Of a stretch of DNA of 64,000 nt, positions 7,249-60,195 are shown piece after piece. Both the position numbers and the translations under genes were made by a program. The notes under the pieces are model-generated. The model saw only the letters and a list, made by a program, of their open reading frames with translations, did no database searches and was not told where the DNA came from. This DNA is from Candidatus Hydrogenedentota bacterium (GTDB taxonomy: Bacteria; Hydrogenedentota; Hydrogenedentia; Hydrogenedentales; SLHB01): the NCBI GenBank assembly GCA_963668025.2, contig CAXXTH010000011.1, positions 128,001-192,000 of the forward strand. The letters are read 5' to 3'. Numbering within the stretch: position 1 is the first letter of the stretch; each line of letters opens with the position of its first letter.

Positions 7249-7280
7249 GAGAGCCAGCCCATTCATAGCCGCCAGAGGAT

Positions 7281-17841: not shown

Positions 17842-19260
17842 TCATATGAACGGAGAAGGAACGCCGTCCTCCATGATCTCCGAGTAATACCGGTTGATCA
17901 AGTCTTTATTGATGCGCGTCAATTCCTCTTTTGGAATGATGGACAATAACTTCCAGCCCAAATCAAGGGTATCCTCGATGGAGCGCCTGGAGGAGCCTTG
18001 GCCTATCATTTGCCTCTCGAAGCCTTCCGCGAACCGGAGGTATTTGCGGTCCAGTTCACTGAGGGCATCTTCACCCACGATGGACATAAGCTTGCGAATA
18101 TCGCGGCCTTGGGCGTAGGCGGCATATAATTGGTTGGCCAAAGCGCGATGGTCTTCACGCGTGAGGCCTTTGCCAATACCGTTGTTCATGAGGCGCGACA
18201 AGCTGGGCAAAATGTCCACGGGCGGGAAGACCCCTTGCCGGTGCAATGCGCGGCTGAGCACGATCTGGCCTTCGGTGATATAGCCCGTCAAATCTGGTAT
18301 CGGGTGCGTGATGTCGTCGTCGGGCATGCTGAGCATGGGGATTTGTGTGACTGAGCCTTTCCGGCCCCGGATGCGGCCCGCGCGTTCATATAACGAAGAA
18401 AGGTCGGTATACATATAGCCGGGATAGCCCCGGCGTCCGGGAATTTCCTCGCGGGCGCTTGATATCTGGCGCAAGGCGTCGCAGTAATTCGTCATATCCG
18501 TGAGCACCACGAGCACCTGGAAATCCAGCTCGAAGGCGAGATATTCGGCCACGGTAAGGGCGCAGCGCGGGGTGAACAGGCACTCGATGACGGGATCGTC
18601 CGCCTTGTTGATGAAGGCGATGACGCGCCCGCCGCCGCCGTTTTCCTCGAAGGAGCGCAGAAAGTATCCCGCCTCACGTTCCGTGATGCCCATCGCGCCG
18701 AACACGACCACGAACTCCTCCGCGTCGCTCTTGGTCGAGGCCTGTTGAACGATGAGGCTCGCGAGTTCATTGGCGGGCAGGCCTGCGCCGAAAAAGATCG
18801 GCAGTTTCTGCCCGCGCACCAAGGTGTTGAAGCCGTCGATGGACGAGACGCCGGTCTCGATGAAATCCTGGGGCTTGTTGCGGGAGACCGGATTGATGGC
18901 CATGCCGATAATATCGAGTTCTTTCTCGGGAAAAGGTGCGGGGAGGCCGTCAATCGGCTGGCCAGCGCCGTTGAACCGGCGGCCAATCAGTTCCTTGGAA
19001 ACCGGGATGCGCGCCGCATCATTTTTAAGGGAGACAGAGGTGCGCTTGGTGTCAAGGCCATGGGTGCCTTGGAGGATCTGCACGATGGCGTGTTTGGTGC
19101 TCACCTCGAGCACCTGGCCCTGGCGTATTTCGCCATCTTCGAGGCGCAGATCGAGAATGCTGCCGGGAGCAAACCGCCCGCCATTTCCTAGGAAGATTAG
19201 CGGGCCGGATATATAGGTTACATCCCTAAATTCCGTCCGGACCAATTCGCCTGGTTTCAT
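17842..19260 (-). CDS. atpB: V/A-type ATP synthase subunit B
   Basis: GQKLPIF, REEIPGRRGYPGYMYTDL and PDLTGYITEGQI motifs; ATG at 19260 overlaps the subunit A stop. Confidence 0.96.
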   Translation of the reverse strand: MKPGELVRTEFRDVTYISGPLIFLGNGGRFAPGSILDLRLEDGEIRQGQVLEVSTKHAIVQILQGTHGLDTKRTSVSLKNDAARIPVSKELIGRRFNGAGQPIDGLPAPFPEKELDIIGMAINPVSRNKPQDFIETGVSSIDGFNTLVRGQKLPIFFGAGLPANELASLIVQQASTKSDAEEFVVVFGAMGITEREAGYFLRSFEENGGGGRVIAFINKADDPVIECLFTPRCALTVAEYLAFELDFQVLVVLTDMTNYCDALRQISSAREEIPGRRGYPGYMYTDLSSLYERAGRIRGRKGSVTQIPMLSMPDDDITHPIPDLTGYITEGQIVLSRALHRQGVFPPVDILPSLSRLMNNGIGKGLTREDHRALANQLYAAYAQGRDIRKLMSIVGEDALSELDRKYLRFAEGFERQMIGQGSSRRSIEDTLDLGWKLLSIIPKEELTRINKDLINRYYSEIMEDGVPSPFI

Positions 19261-21035
19261 GCCGCACCTTCTTTCCCGCTCACGGCCAAAGCGGCCAGCG
19301 CTTCCTTTGTCGAGGTGATAACGGCTTGGCATTTTTCCATGAAATTCTCCGAAGGCTCGTCACGCAAGCGCGCCAAATCCTCACGCACCGGCAGCGCCAG
19401 CAGCTCATTTAGTGTTACTTCTTGCTTGAGAAGGGCTTGGCAGTCTTCGTGAAAGGCAAGCAGCGCGGCCAAAAGGCCTGCCGTCTTATCGATGGAGCTA
19501 AAGGCGTCGGCCTCCGAGTAGGCGTTTTGCTGGAGAAACACCTCGCGAATCAACTTGGCGGTCTCGAGGATCAAGCGCTCCGCGTCTTGCATGGCGTCGG
19601 GGCCTACCAGTTGCACTACTTCCTGGAGTTCCGCGTCTTTCTGCAAGAGCGCCGATGCGCGCTGCCGGTTCTCGCACCAGCCCGCAGGCGCGTTCACATC
19701 GAACCATTCGCGCAATTCTGGCCAGTAGAGCGAATAGCTCTTGTTCCAGTTCACGGCGGGGTAATGCCTGCGGTAGGCGAGGGCGGGATCAAGCGCCCAG
19801 AATCCGCCCGCCACGCGAAGGGAGGCTTGAGTCACCGGTTCGGAGAAATCGCCACCTGCTGGCGATACGGCTCCGACGATGGTCAGCGAGCCTACACGGG
19901 TGTCATCGCTTCCCGCACAGGCCACACGGCCCGCGCGCTCGTAATATTGGGAGATGCGCCCGGCTAGATAGGTGGGATAACCTTCCTCGCCAGGCATTTC
20001 TTCGAGGCGCGACGAAATCTCGCGCAAGGCCTCGGCCCAGCGCGACGTGCTATCGGCCATCAACGCGACACTGTATCCCTGGTCCCGGTAATATTCGGCC
20101 AGGGTGATGCCGGTATATACCGAGGCGTCACGCGCGGCGACGGGCATGTTCGAGGTATTCACCACGAGAATGGTGCGGCTCATGAGGGATTGGCCCGTGC
20201 GCGGATCCGTGAGTTCGGGGAATTCGGAGAGCACGTCCGCCATTTCGTTGCCACGCTCGCCGCAGCCGACATAGACGATGACATCGGCGTTGCAGTATTT
20301 CGAGAGCGTTTGCTCGACGACGGTTTTTCCTGTGCCAAAGCTGCCGGGCACGATGGCCGCGCCTCCCAAGGCAATGGGAAACAGGCAATCGAGCACGCGC
20401 TGGCCAGTCAGGAATGGCTGGGTGCAAGGCAGTTTGCGGCCGCATGGGCGCGGGCGCTTGACGGGCCAGCGATGGGCCATCTTGAGTTTCGCGCCGTCTT
20501 CAAACGTGGCGATGGCGTCCTCGATGGTATATTCGCCTGGCGGGACAATCGTGGCGACTCGCCCATGCATGCGCGGGGGAACAAGGATGCGATGCTCGAT
20601 AGCGGGCGTTTCCTGGACCGCGCCCAGGATATCGCCACCCAACAGCTCCTGTCCCACGGCGGCGGACGGAGTAAATGTCCAGCGCTTCGTGCGGTCCAGG
20701 GCCTCGGCGGTATGGCCGCGCCCGATGAAATCGCCGGACTGGTCCCGCAGCCCCGCCAGCGAGCGCAGAATGCCATCGTAGGTGTTGCCCATGAGGCCGG
20801 GGCCTAATTCCACCGACAACGGGGAGCCGGTGGCGCGCACGGGTTCGCCGAGTTTGATGCCTTGGGTTTCCTCGAAGACTTGCGCATAAATGGAATCACG
20901 ATCCACGCGGATGACTTCTCCGAGGAGGCCCGCTTCGCCCACGTAGACGATCTCGCCCATGGTGGCCCCAGGCATGCCTTCCGCTACGATCATGGGCCCC
21001 GCGATGCGGGTTAGTTTTCCGACAGGCAGTTCCAC
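19257..21035 (-). CDS. atpA: V/A-type ATP synthase subunit A (catalytic)
   Basis: P-loop GSFGTGKT, GCGERGNEM, NTSNMPVAAR and EMPGEEGYP motifs. Confidence 0.96.
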   Translation of the reverse strand: MELPVGKLTRIAGPMIVAEGMPGATMGEIVYVGEAGLLGEVIRVDRDSIYAQVFEETQGIKLGEPVRATGSPLSVELGPGLMGNTYDGILRSLAGLRDQSGDFIGRGHTAEALDRTKRWTFTPSAAVGQELLGGDILGAVQETPAIEHRILVPPRMHGRVATIVPPGEYTIEDAIATFEDGAKLKMAHRWPVKRPRPCGRKLPCTQPFLTGQRVLDCLFPIALGGAAIVPGSFGTGKTVVEQTLSKYCNADVIVYVGCGERGNEMADVLSEFPELTDPRTGQSLMSRTILVVNTSNMPVAARDASVYTGITLAEYYRDQGYSVALMADSTSRWAEALREISSRLEEMPGEEGYPTYLAGRISQYYERAGRVACAGSDDTRVGSLTIVGAVSPAGGDFSEPVTQASLRVAGGFWALDPALAYRRHYPAVNWNKSYSLYWPELREWFDVNAPAGWCENRQRASALLQKDAELQEVVQLVGPDAMQDAERLILETAKLIREVFLQQNAYSEADAFSSIDKTAGLLAALLAFHEDCQALLKQEVTLNELLALPVREDLARLRDEPSENFMEKCQAVITSTKEALAALAVSGKEGAA

Positions 21036-21154
21036 GATACTACCGCTCCAATCTCTGTATATTAAGTTTAAATCTTATACAATAGGTGCGCCATTCTCCG
21101 AACGCTTACGTTCATTGCCTTCGCTGTCATGACGCCTGCTTGAACAAAATCCAC

Positions 21155-21310
21155 ACGCCCAAAGCGGCAGCAAGCTGCCGCACTCCATACTGTTGCCGAG
21201 GAAAAAGTTATAGCACATGTGGAGTGCGGTAGCTTGCTACCGCTTTCTTGTTCTCTAGCGTGTATTTCACAATCACTTCCTTACTTTGACCCGCCAACTC
21301 CATTTTTGAA
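21155..21310 (-). repeat. About 155-bp dispersed element with paired TGGAGTGCGG-N-CCGCTTT hairpins, copy 1
   Basis: Reverse complement aligns along its length with 36890-37046. Confidence 0.75.
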
Positions 21311-21346
21311 AATCCCCTTGCACGGGGAAGACCATATAGCGGATAG

Positions 21347-21712
21347 TTAGTCCAGCCGGATCTCGTAACCAATCGCGGGCCGGATAACTTCCGCGATATA
21401 GCTGTCCATGTCCTGCGTTTCGGAATCGAAGCTGGGGCAATACAGCAAAATAGGCAAGCCTTTGCGCCGAGCGAGGCGTTCCTTAAAGCGTTCTGAAAAC
21501 CGCTCCTGGTAGTCTTCCTGCACGATAATGATGCCCACCTTCCGTTCGCATAGGGCCTCGATGCACGCTTCGGCGTCGCGCATGTCCTTGGGCTGGTCCA
21601 CATGAATGCCTGTTTGGCCTAGCAACAGGGCAAGCGGTTCATCCGCCACCGCGGTAACCACTACGCCAGCCTCTGATTTTTGGATATGTCCGTTTGCCAT
21701 GGTGTATTCCAT
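21347..21712 (-). CDS. atpF: V/A-type ATP synthase subunit F
   Basis: Operon position; VGIIIVQE...IRPAIGYEI. Confidence 0.85.
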   Translation of the reverse strand: MEYTMANGHIQKSEAGVVVTAVADEPLALLLGQTGIHVDQPKDMRDAEACIEALCERKVGIIIVQEDYQERFSERFKERLARRKGLPILLYCPSFDSETQDMDSYIAEVIRPAIGYEIRLD

Positions 21713-21734
21713 TTATAGGCCTGTCATGCAACGC

Positions 21735-22817
21735 TTAATGCCTAGCGCCCACCGTCTGTTCATATACCAATTCTTCCCGTAGCCGGCCCCGAGGGAGATG
21801 CTGGGCTTGGCCGTGCGTGAGAAGGCGTAAATTGATCACTTCGTTATATTTCGCCCAGGCATAGTATAAAAACGAGGCGAAACTCACCGGTTGCACGGAA
21901 GCCAAACGATGGAAACGCCGAAGAATGAGGAGATCTAGCAGGCGTTCGATGGGTGCAAAACGTCTCGCGGATAGGAATTCGTACAGGCGTTCCACAATAT
22001 CCCGGTACATAGTCGGCCCCAAGACTTCCACGGCATCGGCCACGGAGGGGGCTTCGGCAAACCGCCGCAACAGCAATTTGGACAGTGAGCCGCCAGGGAG
22101 CAAGCGTGATACGCGCGCTTCCGGTTCCAGAGCGCTTTGGCTCAACCGGAACAGCATCCGGAGATTAATACGGTCGATTTCCATCTGGAGCGCCGTGCGC
22201 AGGCATTGGGCCGCCTCATGAGCGTCTTGGCGCAAATCCAGTACGCCGGAAACATAGTATGCGCGATCCAGGGCTTCTTGCAGCATGCCCAAATTGTTAT
22301 CTTGCTTGTAGGCGTTCAACTGTTTCAGCAAGCAGCCACAAAGCTCGGGATTCCACAGCGCAAGCGCTTGAGTGAGCGATTCCATGCTGTCCCGGCTGGA
22401 AAGCTCCCGCAACAGCGGTACGGCTAAGGTGGGGCCAGGCATCAGCATTGCTTGCGCATCCTCGTCGCTCATGCCTAGATGGCGGCAGCGCAACAGCGAC
22501 TTGACCGCGATTAGATCCCATTGCAGCAGGTAAAATTCCACATATGGTTTCAACTCGCCATTTGCCATGGCCCTTAATTTCTGGAACGTAGCCGAAAAAT
22601 GCCTGGTGACAGCGTCCTCGACGGCTTTTGCGCCCTGAAACCGGGCCAGGGCTTCGGACATGGCCTCGGCGTAGGGTGAATGCAGCAATACTTCAATCAC
22701 CACCTGCACATCGTTGGCATCGAGAAGCTCCTCCATGCTTGCGGGCGATATAAGCTGGCTTTTCATCGCCCGGATGCGCGCCGCATAATAGATTATATCC
22801 GCGCTCCATGCCTTCAT
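21735..22817 (-). CDS. atpC: V/A-type ATP synthase subunit C (d)
   Basis: YYAARIRAMKSQL, EIDRINLR and KYNEVINLR motifs. Confidence 0.9.
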   Translation of the reverse strand: MKAWSADIIYYAARIRAMKSQLISPASMEELLDANDVQVVIEVLLHSPYAEAMSEALARFQGAKAVEDAVTRHFSATFQKLRAMANGELKPYVEFYLLQWDLIAVKSLLRCRHLGMSDEDAQAMLMPGPTLAVPLLRELSSRDSMESLTQALALWNPELCGCLLKQLNAYKQDNNLGMLQEALDRAYYVSGVLDLRQDAHEAAQCLRTALQMEIDRINLRMLFRLSQSALEPEARVSRLLPGGSLSKLLLRRFAEAPSVADAVEVLGPTMYRDIVERLYEFLSARRFAPIERLLDLLILRRFHRLASVQPVSFASFLYYAWAKYNEVINLRLLTHGQAQHLPRGRLREELVYEQTVGARH

Positions 22818-22820
22818 GCG

Positions 22821-23474
22821 TCACGCCTCCTGGCCGAATAAGGCAAGGACGCATCGTTTGCGGAGTTCCGGTTCGAGCATAGCGAACCTCTCCCCAAGCG
22901 TATTCGTTACGCGAACCGCGCAAGCATGATCTTGAACCGCCACGCCATCAAGCAACCGAGGCTCCGCCTGCACTTCTGCTGGACGGCCATGAAGCGCCCG
23001 CGCGCCATGTATGCGCACCCATTCGCGGCAAACATCAGAGAATTGCGGTGGTATGAGAATGATTACATTACAGCCGGGAGATGCGTCTCTGTCGAATGCT
23101 TCCAGGGCTTCTTGCAGCAGCGCGAGTAAAATGGATTCAAAGTCAGACTCTTCAGCGAGCGCTTCGAGCCGCCGCTTTAGGGCAGACAGCACTTCATCAA
23201 CGGCCTTATATTGCTCGGCGGTTCGTAAACGCTCTGCTTCCACATACGCTTGTTCACGCGCGGCTTGCGTCAATGCTTCCCGTTCTTTATGTAACGCCTC
23301 CATGCTCTCGACGCGGCGCGCTTCGGCCATATCGAGGGCAGCCTTCCGGATTTCCTCCGCTTGGACGCATGCGGCGGCCAGAATCTCATCCGCCCTCATT
23401 TTCACCTGCTGTGTGAGCGTATCGAAAAGAGGAGGACGCGCGGCATGTGTATCGATATCTGGCGGATGGCCCAT
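22821..23474 (-). CDS. atpE: V/A-type ATP synthase subunit E
   Basis: N-terminal coiled coil; GVAV...VTNTLGERF...ALF C-terminus; operon position. Confidence 0.8.
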   Translation of the reverse strand: MGHPPDIDTHAARPPLFDTLTQQVKMRADEILAAACVQAEEIRKAALDMAEARRVESMEALHKEREALTQAAREQAYVEAERLRTAEQYKAVDEVLSALKRRLEALAEESDFESILLALLQEALEAFDRDASPGCNVIILIPPQFSDVCREWVRIHGARALHGRPAEVQAEPRLLDGVAVQDHACAVRVTNTLGERFAMLEPELRKRCVLALFGQEA

Positions 23475-23487
23475 GGATGCTTAATGC

Positions 23488-23856
23488 CTATGCGAGTTGG
23501 AGAATCAAGATAGCAATCACAAAACCTAGGACCACAATGGTCTCAGGAATAGCGTACAAGATTAATATGCTGGCAAAGAGCTCTGGTTTTTCCGCCAAGG
23601 CGCCAGTTCCCCCCGCGCCTACCGCTGCTTGGACACGAGCCGTGCCAAGCCCCGCCAGGCCAATCGCCAGCGCCGCGGCAATCGTCACCCCAAGAATGCG
23701 AATGCCCGTGCCGACACTGTCATTGCCGGTGATAGGGGGATGGGCAGCCACGCTTTCTTCTTCTTGCGCGGATACCGTATTGGGAATCAACACACAGGTT
23801 AGCGCTAATAGTAGGATGAACACCGGGGAGAAGTGGGTGCAAACGCGAACGGTCAT
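23488..23856 (-). CDS. atpK: V/A-type ATP synthase proteolipid subunit K (single hairpin)
   Basis: GLAGLGTARVQAAVG...AEKPE...PETIVVLGF with ion-binding Glu; N-terminal signal-like segment. Confidence 0.92.
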   Translation of the reverse strand: MTVRVCTHFSPVFILLLALTCVLIPNTVSAQEEESVAAHPPITGNDSVGTGIRILGVTIAAALAIGLAGLGTARVQAAVGAGGTGALAEKPELFASILILYAIPETIVVLGFVIAILILQLA

Positions 23857-25781
23857 TTTAGAGCCTCCTTTTTAAATGGTTGGTACGCTATACCGGCCGG
23901 TGTATAGAACTTTGTCATGGATTCCACATAATTCAAACGAAGCGAATGCAAGGCCGGGCTGAATATGCCGATACACACATTAAGCAGGTGGATGGTTACG
24001 GCAACCGGTATCCCCACCCACAGGCTGTCCTGGCCCAAGCCTAATTCATTGGCGACTTCCGCTAACGCGACCGAAGCAAGCCCTAAGGCCATGAGACGGC
24101 TGTATGACAAGATATTTGTCACCAGTGAAACGACTTCCATCATTTGCACGGAGGCCATTACGCCAAGGGCTTTAAATAACAAGAACACACATACAACGCC
24201 TAATGCCGCCGCTAACAGAATCGCGGGCAGTGTGTTGAATGGCCAGCGGCCCGCCATCGCTCCGGCGGCGAGGCCAACGGCCACTAGCCCGCATAACAGG
24301 CCTGTTTTCTCCATGGCGTGAAGCGTATCGTGATGGCGCAGGCTCTCGCGGATGCCGAAGAGCTGGCTCAACACCACATGCACTCCACCAACCCCTACAG
24401 CGATGAATAGGAGACGGATAGGTTCATGCCCTCGGTGAAACCAGAGCGGCTTCATGCCAAATAGCTGATGGCCCAGATCACCCAAGAATTCGCCAAAAAG
24501 CACGCCGAAGATGGTCGCGGAAACACCCGCATAAATGCCTATCATTCCAGCGGAGCGGAGCGCGGGACGCCACCGGCCATACCGCCAGCGCAGGAGGCCA
24601 AAAAGCCCCACAATAATCAGCCCATAAGCGGCATCGCCCAGTATGAATCCATAGAAAAGCACAAAAAACACGCCCACTAGCACGCTCGGGTCGAAAGCGC
24701 CGTAAGCAGGCGGGCGGAAAATGGACAACAGCAATTCAAACGGCTTGAAGATAGGGTGGTTGCGCAACAGAATTGGAATGCGCTCCCGGTCGTCATGGAC
24801 CACGTTTAAGCGTCCGGCATGCACCTGGGCGGGAAAACGGGCGTCGAGCTGCTTCTTGAGTGCTTGTGTTGCGTCACGAGGGAGCCAGCCATGTATCACG
24901 CCCATCAGTTCGCTTTGGGCGCAGAAATGAACCGCCCGGATTTGGGCGGCTTCATCGGCAACCACGAGGCTAGCCGCCGCGATCAGCGCGCCATGCTCCG
25001 CCAGGAATGCCTGAAGCTCTTCCTCACACGCCGCTAAGCTCTCTTTCTGGTTGGTTATATCCTTGCGGGTGCGTTCGATAATCTCATGCAGCGTTCCCCC
25101 GGCGCTTCCGTGAGATTGCATATCCACGGAGACGATATGGTGTGAATGGAGAATTTCCTCAATGATTTCATTGTAATTTTCAGGATACAAGATTACGCCA
25201 ACGGCGCTATGCCGTCCTGTCTTGCGATGGGCAAGCGTGCATGCAGCGCCTGCTTTTTCGCGGAGATGATCCGCCAAATCTTGCAACGTAATCGATAGGC
25301 TACCTTGCAGCACAAACGCTCGCGCTGTCCGGCCTAAAATGGCGTCGTGTCCGCCGAGGAGGGGCTCGACAGCGCGCAAGGTGCGTACATATCCTTCTAA
25401 TACTTCGAGGTTGTCGCGCACGTTGGCCTTGCGCCGGACAATAGAACGTAAATCGCGGGAGCACCGCCGGATTTCTTTGCGCCAATGCGGAAGATCGGCC
25501 ATGCTGAGCTGCGCTACGGTCTCTTGAACCGCCTCTTCGCTGGGACTCGAGGGCATAAGAGGCATCATTTCACCCAGCATCTGCTCGAGCTGTTCGAGCA
25601 TTTCCAGCCGGGCCTGGGTAGCATCATCTAGATGGACGCGATGAAGGAACTGCGGCGTTTGCTCGACAGCCAGCGGCACTTCCTCGAGGTGCAGCACGCC
25701 TTCCACCTGAAGCACGGCGAGCACTTCCGGCAGAATCGCGCGCACGCAGATAATTTCGATATTATCCATATCCGCGATCAT
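23853..25781 (-). CDS. atpI: V/A-type ATP synthase subunit I (a)
   Basis: GDAAYG, NILSYSRLMALGLA and HSLRLNYVE motifs. Confidence 0.95.
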   Translation of the reverse strand: MIADMDNIEIICVRAILPEVLAVLQVEGVLHLEEVPLAVEQTPQFLHRVHLDDATQARLEMLEQLEQMLGEMMPLMPSSPSEEAVQETVAQLSMADLPHWRKEIRRCSRDLRSIVRRKANVRDNLEVLEGYVRTLRAVEPLLGGHDAILGRTARAFVLQGSLSITLQDLADHLREKAGAACTLAHRKTGRHSAVGVILYPENYNEIIEEILHSHHIVSVDMQSHGSAGGTLHEIIERTRKDITNQKESLAACEEELQAFLAEHGALIAAASLVVADEAAQIRAVHFCAQSELMGVIHGWLPRDATQALKKQLDARFPAQVHAGRLNVVHDDRERIPILLRNHPIFKPFELLLSIFRPPAYGAFDPSVLVGVFFVLFYGFILGDAAYGLIIVGLFGLLRWRYGRWRPALRSAGMIGIYAGVSATIFGVLFGEFLGDLGHQLFGMKPLWFHRGHEPIRLLFIAVGVGGVHVVLSQLFGIRESLRHHDTLHAMEKTGLLCGLVAVGLAAGAMAGRWPFNTLPAILLAAALGVVCVFLLFKALGVMASVQMMEVVSLVTNILSYSRLMALGLASVALAEVANELGLGQDSLWVGIPVAVTIHLLNVCIGIFSPALHSLRLNYVESMTKFYTPAGIAYQPFKKEALK

Positions 25782-39045: not shown

Positions 39046-39273
39046 GCAATTGCCTCCTTATGGTTTATACGGCGCGAGTATACCAAACCCAAGCCTAAAA
39101 TCCATATGGCTATTCCGCTTAAAAGCATCTTTTTTTATCCTGCCCAAATACGAACCTCTTTCTCTTTTTGGTGTCAAATAGTATGATCTACCGGAACACC
39201 AAGTTCACTGCGCATGCCCCGAAAGGCTAAAGCGGCGTTCCCTGGCATACGCGTACGGGAAGGAGCGTTACAT

Positions 39274-40686
39274 ATGTGCAGGCATGTAATTGCGGCGGCG
39301 GTATTGGTGTTGGCCATAACGGCCGGAGCCCAGCCGCCTGTACTCGAAACCACCATTGGCCAGCAAACTGATATCGCCGTGACGGCCTACAACAACGGCA
39401 TTGCCCTGGTGCGCGATATACGCACGCTGCAAATGCCCACGGGCGAACTCGAACTCAAGTTCTCGGATGTGGCCCAGCAGATTCGCCCGGAGACCGTCGG
39501 CCTGCGTTCGCTGGCCCAGGAAGGCTCCGTGGGTATTCTTGAACAGAACTATGAGTATGATCTCATCAGCCCGGACAAGCTGATGGAAAAGTATGTGGGC
39601 AAACAAGTCACGTTGAAGAATTTTAGTACGGAAATCAACATGGACTCCGTGCAAGCGGAATTGCTCAGTGTCAATGGCGGTCCCGTTTACAAAGCCGCCG
39701 ATGGGCAAATCTATATCGGCCACCCCGGCCAGGTGGTGTTGCCTGCCATTCCCGATAATCTCATCTCCAAGCCATCGTTGATTTGGCAATTAAACAACGG
39801 CGTCCCCGCACAGACCCTCGAAGCCACCTATTTGACAAACGGCATCTCGTGGAACGCCGACTACGTCCTCACCTTAGCCAAGATCGACGCCTCTCTCGAC
39901 ATCGCCGGTTGGGTGACGCTCAACAACCAAAGCGGCGCGACTTACACCAACGCCCAGCTCAAGCTCGTGGCGGGACAAGTCAATATCGCCCCTCCTATGA
40001 ACGAAAAAGGCTTGAGTAATGTATCTTTAGGAGCTGCAATAAGAATTCGTGCCGACATGCCGCGCGAGGAAGCCTTCGCCGAATACCACCTCTACACCAT
40101 CCCGCGCCGCACGACCATCAAGGAGAACCAATCCAAGCAAGTGGCGCTCCTGAGCGGCGCGGGCGTGGCTTGTGGCAAACGCTACGAATACCGGGGCCAG
40201 GAGTATTTCTACTCCCAGCAGATACCGCCCATGCCCGAAGAAAAAGTCGATGTCTTCCTCGAATTTCAGAACAAGGAAGACAATCATCTAGGCATTCCGC
40301 TGCCCGAGGGCGTGATGCGGATCTACCAGGAAGACAGCGACGGCATGCTCCAGTTCGCGGGCGAGGACCGCATCAAACATACACCCAAAGACGAAAAGGT
40401 GAAACTCCGCATGGGCAAGGCCTTTGATGTCGTGGCGGAGCGCGTCCAGACGGACTACAAGGTCATCGCGCCGAATGTGTGGGAATCGGCCTACGCCATC
40501 ACGCTGCGAAATCATAAGGAAAGCGACATCTCGGTGGATGTGGTGGAGCCCATGCCCGGCGATTGGCGTATCTTCGAGAATTCCCAAGACTTCGTGAAAA
40601 AAGACGCCCGCACGGCCGTGTTCACGGTATCCGTGCCCAAGGATGGAGAAGTCAAAGTCGCATACCGTGTGCAAGTAACGCAATAA
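39274..40686 (+). CDS. DUF4139-domain secreted protein, copy 1
   Basis: Signal peptide; VTAYNNGIALVRD, EQNYEYDL, GWVTLNNQSG and EYHLY motifs; SD AAGGAG. Confidence 0.85.
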   Translation: MCRHVIAAAVLVLAITAGAQPPVLETTIGQQTDIAVTAYNNGIALVRDIRTLQMPTGELELKFSDVAQQIRPETVGLRSLAQEGSVGILEQNYEYDLISPDKLMEKYVGKQVTLKNFSTEINMDSVQAELLSVNGGPVYKAADGQIYIGHPGQVVLPAIPDNLISKPSLIWQLNNGVPAQTLEATYLTNGISWNADYVLTLAKIDASLDIAGWVTLNNQSGATYTNAQLKLVAGQVNIAPPMNEKGLSNVSLGAAIRIRADMPREEAFAEYHLYTIPRRTTIKENQSKQVALLSGAGVACGKRYEYRGQEYFYSQQIPPMPEEKVDVFLEFQNKEDNHLGIPLPEGVMRIYQEDSDGMLQFAGEDRIKHTPKDEKVKLRMGKAFDVVAERVQTDYKVIAPNVWESAYAITLRNHKESDISVDVVEPMPGDWRIFENSQDFVKKDARTAVFTVSVPKDGEVKVAYRVQVTQ

Positions 40687-40741: not shown

Positions 40742-42232
40742 ATGATGAAGTATATGCTTGCAGCAATAGTATCGGCGTTGGGCATTTCGGCGTTGGCCCA
40801 GCCTCCGACACTAGAAACGACTATCGGTCAGCAGACGGATATCGCCGTGACGGCCTACAACAACGGCATCGCCCTCGTGCGGGATGTACGGACCCTTCAA
40901 ATGCCCACGGGGGAACTCCAACTGAAATTCTCGGACGTGGCCCAGCAGATTCGCCCTGAGACCGTCGGCCTGCGTTCCCTAGCCCAGGAAGGTTCCGTGG
41001 GTATTCTCGAACAGAACTACGAGTACGACCTGATCAGCCCAGAGAAACTGATGGAAAAGTATGTAGGTAAACAAGTCACGTTGAAGAACTTCAGCACGGA
41101 GGTCAATATGGACTCCATGCAGGCCGAACTGCTCAGCGTCAACGGCGGGCCGGTCTACAAAGGCGCGGATGGGCAAATATACATCGGGCACCCTGGCCAG
41201 GTCGTTTTGCCTGCCATTCCCGATAACCTTATCTCCAAGCCATCGTTAATCTGGCAGTTGAACAACGCCGCCGCCGCGCAGACCCTTGAAGCCACCTACC
41301 TGACCAACGGCGTCTCGTGGAGCGCCGATTACGTGCTCACCTTGGCCAAAACAGACGCCTCGCTCGATATCGCCGGGTGGGTGACGCTCAACAACCAAAG
41401 CGGCGCAACCTACAAAAACGCCCAGCTCAAGCTCGTGGCGGGCCAAGTCAATGTAGCTCCGCAGGTGGAAGCAGCAAGAGATATGGGAATGGTAGGCATG
41501 GGAGGCGGTATGGCTATGGCCGCGCCGATGCCGAAAGAAGAGGCTTTTGCGGAATACCATCTCTACACGATCCCGCGCCGCACGACCATCAAGGAGAACC
41601 AATCCAAGCAAGTGGCGCTCTTGAGCGGAGCAGGCGTGGCCTGCGGCAAACGCTATGAATACCGGGGCCAGGAGTATTTCTACTCCCAGCAGATTCCGCC
41701 CATGCCCGAAGAAAAAGTCGATGTTTTCCTCGAATTCCAGAACAAGGAAGACAATCATCTGGGCATCCCACTGCCCGAAGGCGTGATGCGGATTTACCAG
41801 GAGGACAGTGACGGCATGCTCCAGTTCGCGGGCGAGGACCGTATTAAGCATACGCCCAAGGACGAAAAAGTGAAGCTCCGCATGGGCCAAGCCTTCGATG
41901 TGGTGGCGGAGCGCGTCCAGACGGACTATAAAGTCATCGCACCGAATGTGTGGGAATCGGCCTACGCCATCACGTTGCGCAACCACAAGGAAAGCGATGT
42001 TACGGTGGACGTGGTGGAGCCCATGCCCGGCGACTGGCGCATCATCGAGAAATCCCAAGATTTCGTGAAGAAAGACGCCCGCACCGCCATATTCACTGTG
42101 CTTGTCCCAAAAGATGGGGAAGTAAAGATCACCTATCGCGTGCAGGTATCCACCGCGAATGCATTTCCAATGCCAGTAGACGCATCAGGCTCCATGGATA
42201 TGAGTGTATCTGAAGCTCCGGCGATTAACTAA
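40742..42232 (+). CDS. DUF4139-domain secreted protein, copy 2 (tandem paralogue)
   Basis: Near-identical to the upstream protein. Confidence 0.85.
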   Translation: MMKYMLAAIVSALGISALAQPPTLETTIGQQTDIAVTAYNNGIALVRDVRTLQMPTGELQLKFSDVAQQIRPETVGLRSLAQEGSVGILEQNYEYDLISPEKLMEKYVGKQVTLKNFSTEVNMDSMQAELLSVNGGPVYKGADGQIYIGHPGQVVLPAIPDNLISKPSLIWQLNNAAAAQTLEATYLTNGVSWSADYVLTLAKTDASLDIAGWVTLNNQSGATYKNAQLKLVAGQVNVAPQVEAARDMGMVGMGGGMAMAAPMPKEEAFAEYHLYTIPRRTTIKENQSKQVALLSGAGVACGKRYEYRGQEYFYSQQIPPMPEEKVDVFLEFQNKEDNHLGIPLPEGVMRIYQEDSDGMLQFAGEDRIKHTPKDEKVKLRMGQAFDVVAERVQTDYKVIAPNVWESAYAITLRNHKESDVTVDVVEPMPGDWRIIEKSQDFVKKDARTAIFTVLVPKDGEVKITYRVQVSTANAFPMPVDASGSMDMSVSEAPAIN

Positions 42233-42242
42233 AAACCGCTTC

Positions 42243-42277
42243 CCGTTCTGGCGGCTTCATGGAAGCCGCCAGAACGG
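42243..42277 (+). terminator. Perfect 16-bp stem hairpin after DUF4139 copy 2
   Basis: CCGTTCTGGCGGCTTC-ATG-GAAGCCGCCAGAACGG; no clear U-tract on +, so it could be REP-like. Confidence 0.6.
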
Positions 42278-42354: not shown

Positions 42355-42383
42355 TTGACATGCAATTGATTAGGTGATAGGCT
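42355..42383 (+). promoter_or_regulatory. Sigma70-type promoter TTGACA-N17-TAGGCT
   Basis: Perfect -35, 17-nt spacer, TAnnnT -10, upstream of the small ORF at 42448. Confidence 0.6.
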
Positions 42384-42447
42384 ACTACACATACGGAAGC
42401 CGAGATTGGATGATGAGTTGTGCCAACAAGGGAAGGAGCGTAGCGCG

Positions 42448-42597
42448 ATGAAGCATCTGAGCATGAGGAAGAGCGCCCGGCCAGCCTTGGCTGGAGATTG
42501 GTGCAACGATTGCTTTTTATGCTGGTGCATCACCAATCCAGGCAGTTCCTTTTGGGAATGCTTCTTGGCGAATATATCCGAAAAAAAATCCGTTTAA
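42448..42597 (+). CDS. 49-aa Cys/Trp-rich peptide with leader-like N-terminus
   Basis: SD AAGGAG before ATG, upstream promoter, fills an otherwise empty gap; MKHLSMRKSARPALA-GDWCNDCFLCWCITNPGSSFWECFLANISEKKSV. Confidence 0.65.
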   Translation: MKHLSMRKSARPALAGDWCNDCFLCWCITNPGSSFWECFLANISEKKSV

Positions 42598-42629
42598 GCA
42601 GAAGCAGCGCCGCATCCGCTGGCTCGCGT

Positions 42630-43469
42630 TTACGATTTCTTTTCCACAAGCGTGATCACGAAGAGGGTGGGCCAGTACTTTCCGGTGATGAGCAAACGCC
42701 CGGTTGCCGGATCATAGGTGATCCCATTCAACACATCCGCGTTGCGGGCCTCTTCACTCGAAAGAAGCCCGGATAAATCGATCCATCCGGTAACAGCGCC
42801 GGTTTGCGGGGAAATACGTGCAATGCGGTCGAGCTGCCACACATTCGCATAGATTTCGCCATTGATGTATTCCAACTCATTCAATCGCTTGACAGGGCCT
42901 ACACTATCCGAGATATCCAACGTTTTAATCGTTTTGAACGTATCCGGATCGAGAAAACGCAGCGTCGCCGTTCCATCGCTCATGATGAGATGCGTTCCAT
43001 CATACGTAATTCCCCAGCCCTCGCCGGAATAGCTCCAGCGCTGTTTCTCTTCAAAAGTGCCTTTGTCATATACAAAACCGATCCCATCTTGCCAAGTAAG
43101 CTGGAAGATGCGCCCATCTATAGCTGTTATGCCCTCCGCGAACCATTCGCTATCCAGGGCGTGCGATTGGAGCACCTTGCCCGTGGCGAGATCGACCCGC
43201 CGCAAGCTGCTGCTTCCTTTCAGCCCCGTGCTCTCATAAAGGACGCCATCCTGATATATCAGCCCTTGCGTCCATGCGGTGGAATCATGGGGATATCGGT
43301 CCATCACTTCATACGTATAAATTGGCACATCCGAAGGAAGCGGAGGCGGGCACGCACAGATAAGCGATACAAAACAAAAGGCCAGCCCCACGGCAGCCAA
43401 AACCGCTATGCGGGCAATCCACCGGCGGACAGGTTTTTTTTCACGAGATGCGGCTTGTTTGTTATTCAT
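42630..43469 (-). CDS. Glutaminyl-peptide cyclotransferase
   Basis: YPHDSTAWTQGL, ESTG, FAEG, QLTW, EGWG, LNELE and VLNGI motifs; start MNNKQ with SD GAGG. Confidence 0.93.
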   Translation of the reverse strand: MNNKQAASREKKPVRRWIARIAVLAAVGLAFCFVSLICACPPPLPSDVPIYTYEVMDRYPHDSTAWTQGLIYQDGVLYESTGLKGSSSLRRVDLATGKVLQSHALDSEWFAEGITAIDGRIFQLTWQDGIGFVYDKGTFEEKQRWSYSGEGWGITYDGTHLIMSDGTATLRFLDPDTFKTIKTLDISDSVGPVKRLNELEYINGEIYANVWQLDRIARISPQTGAVTGWIDLSGLLSSEEARNADVLNGITYDPATGRLLITGKYWPTLFVITLVEKKS

Positions 43470-43758
43470 TCGATAATCCTCTATCAGATCAATCACACGC
43501 ATTAAGAATACCCCAGCGAGGCTTTGATGCTCCAGTTCCATTTTGACAGGATGGCCCAATATCCAGTAAAGCACAATCCTTAAAAAATGGCGGCGCTTCG
43601 TTCAAAAAAACGGCGATGTTATTGAATCGTCCACCTCTTAAAATGCGCCATAAAATTTGCTTTTACATGTCTTTTGCATTTTTAGAGTTATTAAGGTATC
43701 ATGAAGTAAAGGGGGCGAAGAGTTTTATCCAGAAAAATTTTTGGATAGGAAGCGAGCC

Positions 43759-56836: not shown

Positions 56837-59077
56837 TCAATGGCGAAGCCAATACTGATCATGCAGGTCCAGCATTTCCTGGAGCTTCCTGCGCCATAAA
56901 TTCACCCGGTCTGTATAGCGGCTGGATACATCTTGCATGACACCATACCGTCCGGCTCGGTCCAAATCATACAGTTCAATGGATTCGGCTCCATTTGGCG
57001 CGCCAGACTCAAACGGCGTCCGCCCGGTATTCCAATACAACCGCCAGCGCTCATTGCGCATGGTCATGGCTAAGGGCGCGCTTTCCATCGACACCGGCAT
57101 GACGCCGTTTGGGCCTTTCACAAAATCCTGGCCATCCACAGGTTCTGCGAACGGGGTATCCGCTTGCGCCAGCAGTGAAGGCGCAATATCTTCCAAGCTT
57201 ACAAAATCCGTACGCTGCTCATTTCCAAGCCACTGGGCATACAGGATAAGCGGCACATGCAGGCATGCCTCTGAAAGGCCTATTTTCGGCGGGCCATTAA
57301 GAGAAAAATCATAGCCATACGGCGATGTGACCACGATAATCGTATTTTTCCGGGTCTCATAATCCCGCACATGCTTGATGAATGCGCCCGCCTGCCTATC
57401 GAGATACGCCAATATCGTGTCATGAATATCTAGAGGCGAAGGTTCGACGCTTCCAGATGCGCTCGAGACCGCGCCGAATGGCGCGCCATATCGAGGCTGA
57501 AGTTGCTGGTCCGTCAACTCGCTCAGCCGGATAAACAACATGAAGTGCAGATTATTGTGGCTGTCAAGCCATTCTTGGGCATTATTCAACGTAAGGCGGG
57601 AGCCTGCGGGCTGGGCGGAAGGCTCGGGACGCTCTTCAGCCTCCGGCTCTGCTGCCGCCTCCATTTCCGGTTCTTCGCTGGGCAGCTCGAAGGCATCTTC
57701 TTCTTCCTCTGAAGGCTCCACAGGCGGAGCAGGAACTGCGGCAGGCGCATTCGGCTTGTCGGGCTGGTAGGAAGCATCAAACACCTCGAAACCTCGCTCA
57801 AAGCCGCTGCCATATGTCAAGTCGCCATGCGAATCGCCCTCTGTAAAGGCCGCAGTGGCATATCCTTTATTGCGGCATACTTCCGCTAATGTCGCAAAAG
57901 GCTCCGGAAGCGGGCTGGAATGGCCTCCTAAACGTCCATGCCGCAACGGATTAAGGCCTGTCGCCATACTCCAATAAGCCGCTGCTCCTTCTGGCGCTAC
58001 CGTATAGGCATTGCTGAAAAACAAGCTTGACCAGGCAAGTTTATCCAGATTGGGCGTCACCACCCGTTTATACCCCCCGCGTCCCATCTGCCCATAACTC
58101 AGCCCATCCAAGGCGATGATCACTATATTCGGATTGGCATGGTCTTCCGGATCGGTGCGCACCGTATGGACATATGGACCCGAAAGCAGGATCGAGCGGG
58201 TGCTCTGGACAACAGGGCGCAATCCGATTATCGAGCGCCACTTTGGCAGCTTCTCCGCCGTCCATGTCACTAGGCAATGCCCGACTCCTTGAGGGGCGTT
58301 GCTGGTGTCTATCTGCAGAGCAGCCCACCCCGAAGGGCGCATCGCCACCGCATACTGGTAAGATTTCTTTTTTATGCCGCGCAACGTGACGGTGACAAAG
58401 ATGCGCTTCAGGGGCTCGGGCGTATTCGGCGGATTGGCCCATCGCAAGGTAATGCCCGCGCCAGGGCATCCCGCCACCTCGGTTTCCACCACGGAGCCTT
58501 CCGGCATGGCGCGCGCGGAGGCGTATTCATTGCCCACCCGAACAGCTTCAATAGTTTCCGGCGCATTCGGGCGCGCCAACTCGAGGGCTTCCGACCAGCG
58601 GCTAAAACCTAGCATGCCGCAATAGCCCGACATGGCCGCACAGGCCGCCCATAACAGCGCTTTCGAATGGTTTCCAGGCGCGCTTTGCAACGCCGTGAAA
58701 AAAGAAAACAGCTTAAGCGCGGCATGAACGGCCAAAAATACGGCCAAATACGCCAGCGGTTCCGCTTTAGCCAGTTCCGGGATCGGCCACTTTACGTGTA
58801 CATGAAATAAATAAGGCAGCAGCGCCAAAGCCGCTAACTGCGACGCTCCATCGGCCGCCAAAAAGCTCTTTCCCTGCGCGGGCTTGTACAGGGAGGCCAT
58901 TGTCATATATACAAACTGAAGCGCGGCATATCCCGAGCCAGCCCCCACCGCCAGCGCCACCCCCATATCGTACCCAACTACATAGCCTTGGCCCGCCATG
59001 ACCTGTTGGACAAAAAGCCCCACAAGCCCAGAAGCGGCGGTGACAATCGCAAGATAAAATAAGTGGAGGACGATCAT
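56837..59077 (-). CDS. Membrane-anchored sulfatase-fold protein with degenerate active site
   Basis: N-terminal TMs; NIVIIALD, TPNLDKLA...FSNAY...TGLNPLRHG, HVPLIL and DIAPSL motifs; SD AAGGAG. Confidence 0.82.
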   Translation of the reverse strand: MIVLHLFYLAIVTAASGLVGLFVQQVMAGQGYVVGYDMGVALAVGAGSGYAALQFVYMTMASLYKPAQGKSFLAADGASQLAALALLPYLFHVHVKWPIPELAKAEPLAYLAVFLAVHAALKLFSFFTALQSAPGNHSKALLWAACAAMSGYCGMLGFSRWSEALELARPNAPETIEAVRVGNEYASARAMPEGSVVETEVAGCPGAGITLRWANPPNTPEPLKRIFVTVTLRGIKKKSYQYAVAMRPSGWAALQIDTSNAPQGVGHCLVTWTAEKLPKWRSIIGLRPVVQSTRSILLSGPYVHTVRTDPEDHANPNIVIIALDGLSYGQMGRGGYKRVVTPNLDKLAWSSLFFSNAYTVAPEGAAAYWSMATGLNPLRHGRLGGHSSPLPEPFATLAEVCRNKGYATAAFTEGDSHGDLTYGSGFERGFEVFDASYQPDKPNAPAAVPAPPVEPSEEEEDAFELPSEEPEMEAAAEPEAEERPEPSAQPAGSRLTLNNAQEWLDSHNNLHFMLFIRLSELTDQQLQPRYGAPFGAVSSASGSVEPSPLDIHDTILAYLDRQAGAFIKHVRDYETRKNTIIVVTSPYGYDFSLNGPPKIGLSEACLHVPLILYAQWLGNEQRTDFVSLEDIAPSLLAQADTPFAEPVDGQDFVKGPNGVMPVSMESAPLAMTMRNERWRLYWNTGRTPFESGAPNGAESIELYDLDRAGRYGVMQDVSSRYTDRVNLWRRKLQEMLDLHDQYWLRH

Positions 59078-59262
59078 GCCTTCTCCTTGATGAATACGCC
59101 CAACGCCGAATAAATGCTCCCCCATATCAAAACCTTCAGGAGTCTATGTCACAAGCAGAGGGAATGCAAACAAACCGGGCACGGAAAACCCATTTGGGCG
59201 TAAAAGCGCCGCCGTGGTATGCTTGGCCATTATCAAACAATTCATTTCCCAAGGAGAGAGCC

Positions 59263-60195
59263 ATGATGTCCGTAAACAACCTGCCCGGCCCGCCCCGGGT
59301 GCAGATTCAAACCCAGGCGGGGTGCAATGGCCGGTGCGTTTTCTGTCCGAACGATGCCGTGCTGAAAACGAAATTGCCCCATGGCAAAATGACGCCGGAG
59401 GTTTTCCGCAAAATAATCGATGAGCTCGCGGAAACACCGCCCCGGCGTGTCAGCTTGTATCTGATGAACGAGCCTTTGAGTGATAAACGCATGCCCGAAT
59501 TCGTGCGCTACACGGCGGAACGCATCCCCTCGGCAACCACGCTGATTACCTCCAACGGCACCAAGCTCTCCGAAGAATGCACGGAAGCGCTTATCACCGC
59601 TGGCCTAAAACGATTGAAAGTAAGCCTGCAATCTATCGATCCGGAAACGAATAAAGCCATCATGGGCTATTCGAGCGAACGGGTCATCGAGAATGTTTTA
59701 GGCGCACAGCGCGTGATCAAGCGCATGAAGGCCAAGCATTTCGACTTCCGCGTCTCCATGGTCGTCACATCGAAGACATTACATGAAGTCGACCGCGCCC
59801 GCGCATTCTGGAAAAAACACGGCATCCGCCTCGTCACGTCATCCTTGGAAAACCGGGGGGGCAACATCGGTATCGCGGAAGAACTCAACGGCGGTGAAAT
59901 GAAACAGCGGAGCCGCTGCATCCGCCCTTCCCGGGAGATGTGCATTCTCTACAATGGGGACGCCGTACTGTGCTGCGTGGATTGGTACCGTACCGTTGTG
60001 TTGGGCAATGTCGCCCAACAATCCGTCCAGGAAGTCTGGAACAGCCCCCGTTTGCAGGAGATCCGGGAAGCTTTCAGCATAGATGCATTCGACCGGCTGC
60101 CGGATATTTGCGTCCAATGTACGGAAAGCGCTTCGCCGGATAAACACCGGCGCGGCTTGCGCGCATGGTTCCACAAACTTGTAGCGGCCCGATAA
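59263..60195 (+). CDS. Radical SAM protein with SPASM/twitch domain
   Basis: CNGRCVFC; CIRP...GDAVLCCVDW...LGN...CVQC; SD AAGGAG. Confidence 0.9.
   Translation: MMSVNNLPGPPRVQIQTQAGCNGRCVFCPNDAVLKTKLPHGKMTPEVFRKIIDELAETPPRRVSLYLMNEPLSDKRMPEFVRYTAERIPSATTLITSNGTKLSEECTEALITAGLKRLKVSLQSIDPETNKAIMGYSSERVIENVLGAQRVIKRMKAKHFDFRVSMVVTSKTLHEVDRARAFWKKHGIRLVTSSLENRGGNIGIAEELNGGEMKQRSRCIRPSREMCILYNGDAVLCCVDWYRTVVLGNVAQQSVQEVWNSPRLQEIREAFSIDAFDRLPDICVQCTESASPDKHRRGLRAWFHKLVAAR

Follow-up and report, generated by a model that had tools for sequence, protein, structure and literature searches.

The peptide gene described here lies in a window of 64,000 nucleotides (the whole stretch of DNA that was analysed) from a Hydrogenedentota genome. 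Its reading frame encodes a short leader and a variable core, is preceded by a ribosome-binding site and a promoter-like site, and has a hairpin on either side (Table 1); in the list of open reading frames, a longer version of the same frame, started at a TTG, spans 42406-42597. The upstream hairpin, the promoter-like and Shine-Dalgarno sites, the 49-codon frame and the composition of the core (5 Cys, 3 Trp, 3 Phe and a DCFL/ECFL echo) had all been listed in a preliminary description of the locus, and all are present in the letters.

Table 1. Features of the peptide locus, in window coordinates.
Feature	Position	Strand	Remarks
Hairpin, perfect, 16 bp	42243..42277	+	-31.9 kcal/mol, z = -7.1, 0/200 shuffles as stable
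Promoter-like site	42355..42383	+	TTGACA (42355-42360), 17-nt spacer, TAGGCT (42378-42383); read from the letters
Shine-Dalgarno sequence, GGAAGGAG	42431..42438	+	9 nt before ATG 42448
Open reading frame, 49 codons	42448..42597	+	ATG 42448, stop 42595-42597; 49 aa and stop
Leader, 15 aa, MKHLSMRKSARPALA	42448..42492	+	family leader with a one-residue deletion relative to its commonest form
Core, 34 aa and stop	42493..42597	+	core of the two-Cys subfamily with three extra Cys
Short hairpin	42605..42621		in the 32-nt gap between the stops of the peptide and of the convergent cyclase; terminator-like on the - strand

The promoter-like site also shows an extended -10 form, TGATAGGCT at 42375-42383, in which TG stands one base 5' of TAGGCT. 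It is absent from the output of a generic promoter scan because TAGGCT agrees with TATAAT at only three of six positions. Among 129 upstream regions of the peptide family presented below, extended -10 motifs occur in 25 (shuffled regions: 9.2 ± 3.1, maximum 17) and TTGAC-N16-19-TAnnnT in 14 (shuffled regions: 1.5 ± 1.3, maximum 6; reverse-complement control: 0). The upstream hairpin begins 11 nt 3' of the stop of the preceding DUF4139 gene, and is therefore most simply read as the terminator or insulator of that gene, likely separating it from the peptide gene; no U-run follows it on the + strand. The short downstream hairpin, folded as the + strand, is no better than its shuffles (z 0.16). 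The gene that converges on the peptide gene encodes a glutamine cyclotransferase (PF05096, E 1.2e-98) and is followed by pseudopilin-type genes. A look-up of RNA runs listed none, and contigs of four runs placed at 80% likeness do not extend over 42392-42678, an observation to which we attach no conclusion.

Other parts of the window deserve a brief mention. Directly 5' of the peptide gene, two tandem DUF4139/DUF4140 paralogues (39214-40686 and 40742-42232) are near-identical over most of their length, and a V/A-type ATPase operon with A, B, C/AC39 and I subunits occupies 17845-25781. A sulfatase gene and a divergent radical-SAM/SPASM gene stand side by side at 56840-60192. The latter (59146-60192) was considered as a peptide maturase and set aside; since it adjoins the sulfatase, it is likely an anaerobic sulfatase maturase, unrelated to the peptide.

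A family of MKH-leader peptides in Hydrogenedentota

Single-sequence searches with the window peptide gave no convincing match in 60 relatives (best E 0.006), and a word-index search retrieved no relative, nor the peptide itself. The entry point to the family was a weak match in one relative (G008), consisting of two tandem ORFs of 44-45 aa with the same kind of leader and ribosome-binding site as the window gene and a SSFWNC/STFKEC motif. The family leader reads M-[KRSN]-H-hydrophobic-..-[ST]-[KR]-..-P-x-x-A, where P-x-x-A falls at residues 10-18 and His3 is invariant in every member. At least 16 small genes with an MKH-leader are dispersed in the genome of the window: a census by regular expression and ribosome site counted 15, against 0 in the reversed genome, and the window ORF is the 16th. 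When the leader was turned into a degenerate DNA pattern and run on the order's 133 genomes, 58 matches were obtained; the same pattern reversed gave 5. All matches that we translated are ORFs of 27-71 aa, except one of 145 aa, with a GGAG-type site 5-10 nt 5', these sites having been read in members selected by the pattern prior to any Shine-Dalgarno filter. The window gene, 49 aa long with GGAAGGAG 9 nt 5' of its start, fits this layout. The 145-aa member (L109 702-1139, on contig C668 of G033) carries an MKH leader, a short Lys/Pro-rich stretch like that of the short family peptides and about 100 further residues.

A stricter version of the pattern, run on one genome each for 185,579 species, retrieved 14 stretches, 11 of them labelled Hydrogenedentota. 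The remaining three are labelled Nitrospiraceae, but they have the same lengths and match positions as three contigs of a single genome (G122, same family, genus g6). At the level of this strict DNA pattern and of these species genomes, the survey shows the leader to be restricted to Hydrogenedentota. Taking 55 non-redundant members together, leaders measure 13-18 aa and cores 11-56 aa, the latter being hydrophobic and Gly-rich, Cys-paired, or Lys/Pro-rich. Pfam and NCBIfam models gave no match to any family member. One subfamily, P1, comprises 78 clusters in the public protein collection, mostly from Hydrogenedentota metagenome-assembled genomes; every name given is 'hypothetical protein', and none of the clusters has a Pfam domain.

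Family members are under purifying selection. We compared 18 orthologue pairs, two of which had no synonymous change; pN/pS was computable for the other 16, and was at most 0.33 in 15 of them and 0.53 in one. In one example pair, 13 differences were synonymous and one was non-synonymous. These figures concern other members of the family, the window peptide being without a close orthologue.

A subset of the family, the two-Cys subfamily, is characterized by two invariant Cys around a loop of 15-24 residues, the second lying in (S/T/G)-(F/L)-x-(E/D/N)-C. A profile search of 1.84 billion proteins yielded 42 representatives at E ≤ 1e-3. Among the 32 retrieved, 26 are 41-60 aa long; the remaining six, of 68-176 aa, are longer calls with extra upstream residues and the peptide at their C-terminal end. 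Several of the retrieved representatives have 4-6 Cys and, therefore, Cys-rich variants like the window peptide are normal in this subfamily.

The window peptide was placed with a profile built from 13 related peptides of other genomes, itself left out. This profile ranked the window ORF first among the 140,482 stop-to-stop ORFs of its genome, with a modest E-value of 0.0012 (runner-up 0.56). In an alignment of 18 peptides, its M1, H3, P12, A13, A15, C22 and C38 occupy invariant columns, C22 and C38 aligning with the invariant Cys of the 17 relatives; its SSFWEC matches the SSFWNC and STFKEC of relatives, and its EKK tail is common among them. The leader departs from the family at positions 5-9 through the one-residue deletion. 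These residues and its rank place the window peptide in the two-Cys subfamily, as a divergent member, and the 49-codon ORF looks like a real gene for a precursor-type peptide.

The first 15 residues of the window peptide have a polar, basic character, contain neither a hydrophobic run, which in a Sec signal would be about 10 residues or longer, nor the RR motif of Tat signals, and end in PALA-G, without GG or GA at -2/-1. The earlier view that the leader is of none of the Sec, Tat or double-glycine types agrees with this lack of any such character and with the failure to find a C39-ABC transporter in the genome, where the only C39-like matches are a stand-alone protein of 121 aa and a sub-threshold stretch in an AAA/PG-binding protein. 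Likewise, the leader-core reading of the preliminary description holds, as leaders are shared and cores vary among the 55 non-redundant members, and the family of small ORFs that it predicted, with an M-K/R-x-(I/L)...P-x-x-A leader and variable cores, was found in the genomic census. What does not stand is the idea of a stand-alone novelty: the gene is one of the orphans of a system that spans the phylum. By our pattern and profile searches, this system includes a large, previously undescribed family of small peptides with a leader and a variable core, present in Hydrogenedentota only.

Three further observations concern the cores. The number of Cys is even in 15 of the 19 Cys-containing cores among the 55 members, which is a hint of export; the window peptide, with its 5 Cys, is an exception. 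Two Cys-rich small ORFs (at least 6 Cys) lie 1.3 kb apart at L164 10105-10269 and 11441-11596 (contig C24 of the window's genome), with an MKH/MRH start, a longer leader ending in LP-x-LA and no enzyme gene between them; one of them has a weak match to the Pfam PSI (plexin repeat) model (E 3.8e-4). Finally, Gln follows P-x-x-A in 9 of the 55 members (Gln or Glu in 13), Gln making up 4.9% of cores overall, and the glutamine cyclotransferase that adjoins the window peptide gene (42630-43574) is membrane-anchored. An N-terminal pyroglutamate is conceivable on some family members, though not on the window peptide, whose core would start with Gly. An action of the cyclase on the window peptide was set aside for this reason and because the two genes adjoin only here, in agreement with the weakness that the preliminary description had already seen in this link.

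A cassette in trans and an ECF sigma operon

The surroundings of the orphan genes are mostly housekeeping. A Pfam search of 257 ORFs around 26 peptide loci detected no maturase beside orphans, and all-against-all clustering of 665 neighbouring ORFs revealed no maturase, peptidase or transporter recurrent beside them, the only informative recurrence being a sigma/anti-sigma pair. Two single neighbourhoods can be noted in the window's genome. In one (L130 6233-7625; contig C17, ~872-874 kb), an orphan MKH peptide lies directly 5' of, and on the same strand as, an ABC ATPase and an ABC-2/auxiliary permease; this is a single case. In the other (L127 1532-2992; contig C3), the gene found about 0.5 kb away from a different orphan MKH peptide encodes a group II intron reverse transcriptase/maturase.

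A candidate processing locus is encoded on a contig other than that of the window gene, namely C17 (580-589 kb, minus strand), where a TIGR03974 search matched a frame of 648 aa. It comprises, in order, two peptides with MKH/VKH leaders, a GNAT-type protein of 186 aa, a GNAT protein (PF13302), a CPBP/Rce1-like intramembrane protease (PF02517), an ABC ATPase, a permease and a 642-aa protein. We examined 13 such loci, which come from five families of the order; all have this gene order and start with 2-5 peptides bearing the same leader. The preliminary description had proposed enzymes encoded in trans, and this cassette, in its predicted role, would supply them. It had also suggested looking for peptidase, transporter or radical-SAM genes beside the small ORFs; none recurs beside the orphans in the 26 loci, and it is at the cassette that a protease and an exporter accompany leader peptides.

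Compared with the PDB, the 642-aa protein has CteB as its sole match (5wgg, E 3.1e-18; residues 6-173 and 340-429). The alignment shows it to be a homologue of CteB, the SCIFF maturase, with an N-terminal region that aligns to the part of CteB holding the RRE. PMC8326336 describes this N-terminal domain of CteB as an RRE, on which the CteA leader is bound as a β-strand. The CX3CX2C motif of CteB aligns to a Cys-free sequence in the 642-aa protein, and no CxxxCxxC was found in the aligned region of any of 15 homologues. Across these homologues, 31% of the first 100 positions are invariant, compared with 8.5% in the stretch 101-300, and four Cys are invariant in the SPASM-aligned region; residues 480-642 of the protein form a GNAT-like C-terminal domain. 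One copy of the CteB-like protein is encoded in each of 123 of the order's 133 genomes, and in 82 of the 84 that are of high quality. Its RRE-like domain contains a C-F-C-F-E-C stretch (residues 24-29 of L172:9989-11914:-) that the aligned CteB sequence does not have and that could be a metal site; all 15 homologues have Cys24 and Cys26, and 14 of them also Cys29.

Genome-wide searches for other machinery were largely negative. No SCIFF-type maturase reaches the TIGR03974 cut-off in the genome (best 76 bits against 425), and the best-scoring match starts at profile position 102, thus without the N-terminal part. A stand-alone RRE of the PqqD type (PF05402), as used by lasso peptide and other systems, has 0 matches at E ≤ 0.01 in this genome, which is 93.75% complete. 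Seven SPASM-domain proteins are encoded, together with many sulfatases. The leader-core architecture, together with a genome-encoded CteB-like protein whose N-terminal domain is RRE-aligned, is in keeping with a RiPP precursor. As the window gene and the cassette are on different contigs, the only link between them is the shared leader. Through this leader, the window peptide would probably be handled by the conserved cassette encoded elsewhere in its genome.

The recurrent sigma/anti-sigma pair has a defined arrangement. In 16 of 30 loci, genes for an ECF sigma factor and an anti-sigma protein of 510-590 aa are followed directly by 2-4 leader peptides (P1, P2, P3); the other 14 loci are without peptides, and in five of them the available sequence ends less than 600 nt downstream. 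Of the 133 genomes, 115 have the anti-sigma gene; its product spans the membrane once, and the TPR-like C-terminal part that follows this span should therefore be outside the cytoplasm. In the window's genome, this operon (L126 7071-11464; contig C23, ~300-304 kb) comprises the ECF sigma, a 542-aa TPR-like anti-sigma, four MKH-leader peptides and a single-span membrane protein of 240 aa; a membrane protein of about 250 aa 3' of the peptides is found in this genome and in G015. The ECF sigma at L126 7071-7711 is split into two frames, with region 2 in 7071-7367 and region 4 in 7379-7711, which could be a frameshift or an assembly error.

Proposed processing and competing explanations

Our preferred reading, to which we give a probability of about 0.6, is that the ORF is a real gene of the family and that its peptide would be processed in trans by the CteB-like/GNAT/CPBP/ABC cassette, without radical chemistry. 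As deduced from the sequences, the window leader would dock on the RRE domain of the CteB-like protein. The peptide could then be acylated or otherwise tailored by non-radical means, with the GNAT domains as candidates, and the leader might be removed near P-A-L-A, with the CPBP protease as candidate, although CPBP proteins can be immunity proteins instead of leader peptidases. The 34-aa core would be exported by the ABC transporter of the cassette and, outside the cytoplasm, C22 and C38, perhaps with further Cys, may form disulfides stapling a hairpin. The product might serve as a signal, an antagonist or an envelope factor. The thioether or aromatic cross-links envisaged in the preliminary description are unlikely, since the genome has no active SCIFF-type maturase at the TIGR03974 cut-off and the CteB relative is devoid of the radical-SAM motif; GNAT acyl transfer together with disulfides seems more likely.

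A wider scheme, which we offer as a tentative and rather doubtful extension, would see the SCIFF-type leader/RRE pair turned into a general platform, in which a radical-SAM maturase deprived of its catalytic cluster acts as a docking scaffold and presents dozens of scattered and rapidly evolving precursors, the window peptide included, to GNATs, a CPBP protease and an ABC exporter; some of the exported peptides, P1-P3, would feed back on the extracytoplasmic TPR part of the nearly universal ECF anti-sigma. It would amount to a new class of acylated peptides with a peptide-sensing circuit.

Other explanations account for part of these data. The peptide could be exported or membrane-active without modification, like a class II bacteriocin or a signal, its leader being an export or sorting tag that is independent of the cassette and cleaved at an A-x-A-like site. 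The hydrophobic/Gly-rich, Cys-paired or Lys/Pro-rich cores are as in unmodified bacteriocins, the neighbours of most orphans are housekeeping genes and one orphan lies directly 5' of an ABC-2 exporter (L130). Signal peptidase I follows a -3/-1 rule, with A-x-A-like cleavage sites, and P-A-x-A resembles it; nevertheless, the leader has no hydrophobic h-region and the genome lacks a detectable C39-ABC transporter, while the same leader heads the cassette in 13/13 loci and a cassette protein keeps the domain aligned to the leader-binding part of CteB, which makes this explanation unlikely. Slightly less probable still is an uncleaved small protein, cytoplasmic or membrane-associated, whose N-terminus would be a functional module, either an X-X-His metal site or a tag for a partner such as the TPR anti-sigma. 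M-X-H is a type of N-terminal Cu/Ni-binding motif, into which the invariant His3 fits, and the peptides directly 3' of the anti-sigma gene in 16/30 loci could be its partners. However, the variable spacer before the conserved P-x-x-A, the hypervariable C-termini, the even Cys counts and the cassette exporter fit a cleaved leader better, and the anti-sigma is expected to hold its TPR part outside the cytoplasm.

We regard two further explanations as quite improbable. In one, the peptide would be a true ranthipeptide or sactipeptide-like product with Cys cross-linked by an active radical-SAM/SPASM enzyme encoded elsewhere in the genome, as could be expected from the seven SPASM-domain proteins, the Cys-rich core and the SCIFF-like leader. 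Against it stand the sub-threshold TIGR03974 score with its late start in the profile, the sulfatase adjoining the SPASM gene of the window and the many sulfatases in the genome, and the lack of a radical-SAM motif in the RRE-bearing CteB homologue. In the other, equally improbable, there would be no gene at all, and the frame would have stayed open by accident, either between genes or in the 3' untranslated region of an adjacent one: the ORF is short, a search by word index was empty even for the peptide itself, GC by codon position over the ORF is not decisive, and Rfam gave no match over 40-45 kb of the window at E ≤ 5. Nevertheless, the ORF is the top match of an independent family profile, its Shine-Dalgarno sequence and start are placed as in its relatives, and both invariant Cys are kept along with the invariant residues of the leader.

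The preferred reading, processing in trans by the cassette, would have several consequences if true. An uncultured phylum would make a large leader-guided peptide repertoire, with at least 16 genes in this genome and 42 representatives in public data for one subfamily. Its machinery would descend from a radical-SAM peptide maturase with loss of the radical chemistry, providing a clear example in which the recognition module of a RiPP system survives its catalytic partner and finds new use with acyltransferases, and the layout of one cassette and many orphans would be found outside cyanobacteria. Many of these short genes escape gene callers, so that such repertoires are under-counted in genome mining. 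A literature search at the level of listings found nothing joining Hydrogenedentota with RiPPs, ranthipeptides, SCIFF or bacteriocins; the dispersed layer of orphans, the two-Cys subfamily and the operon of sigma, anti-sigma and peptide genes are new elements.

Relationship to SCIFF and other known systems

The likeness of the leader to SCIFF was assessed with a set collected by a pattern from two short motifs, in which residues 1-5 are fixed by the pattern and residues 6-8 are free. This pattern gave at least 118 stretches, nearly all from Clostridia and other Bacillota, and as a positive control the 12 clostridial ORFs that were translated all matched PF13165 (SCIFF) at 65-90 bits and start with MKHIK[TVS][LVI][NST]. 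The Hydrogenedentota consensus, MKH[IVL][KR]x[LVIM][ST], agrees with SCIFF at the free residues 6-8; the window peptide itself shares only MKH-L with the start of the SCIFF leader. The SCIFF models (PF13165/TIGR03973) matched neither the window peptide nor the 54 other non-redundant members, a six-frame search of the genome with the SCIFF HMM at E ≤ 10 gave no match, and no active ScfB/CteB radical-SAM maturase is adjacent to the window gene. Without a match to the SCIFF models and with unrelated cores, this is therefore a derived system and not SCIFF, and we read it as a leader-guided ribosomal peptide system apparently derived from SCIFF.

In common with the SCIFF/ranthipeptide systems of Clostridia (CteB/ScfB, 5WGG), it has precursors of 45-50 aa and, as partner, a CteB homologue that aligns over the RRE-holding N-terminal and SPASM regions; the first eight residues look alike in type, the first five of them being fixed by the pattern on the SCIFF side. 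In contrast, the Hydrogenedentota leader ends in P-x-x-A, whereas that of SCIFF ends in GG followed by CGEC; the cores are hypervariable instead of being one conserved core with six Cys; the CteB homologue is without CX3CX2C and carries a GNAT-like domain; and many dispersed orphan genes are present per genome, in a different phylum.

With regard to organization, the closest parallel is found in the prochlorosins, where one ProcM enzyme serves many dispersed ProcA precursors with a shared leader. The leader family, enzyme chemistry and taxon of the Hydrogenedentota system are unrelated to those of prochlorosins, and any modification of its peptides is putative; nevertheless, both have one processing locus per genome, scattered precursors with a shared leader, and hypervariable cores. 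The double-glycine bacteriocins and microcins resemble it in their non-hydrophobic leader of 13-18 aa, in their hydrophobic, Gly-rich or Cys-paired cores and in the use of an ABC exporter, whereas here there is no GG/GA site and no C39-ABC in the genome, and the cassette has a CPBP-family protease instead. Finally, peptide natural products can be under the control of an ECF sigma/anti-sigma pair, such as MibX/MibW of microbisporicin. The operon found here differs in consisting of small peptides and a membrane protein of ~250 aa, with no biosynthetic enzymes, and its regulation is putative; as in MibX/MibW, the genes of the ECF sigma and of the membrane anti-sigma stand directly beside precursor-type peptide genes.
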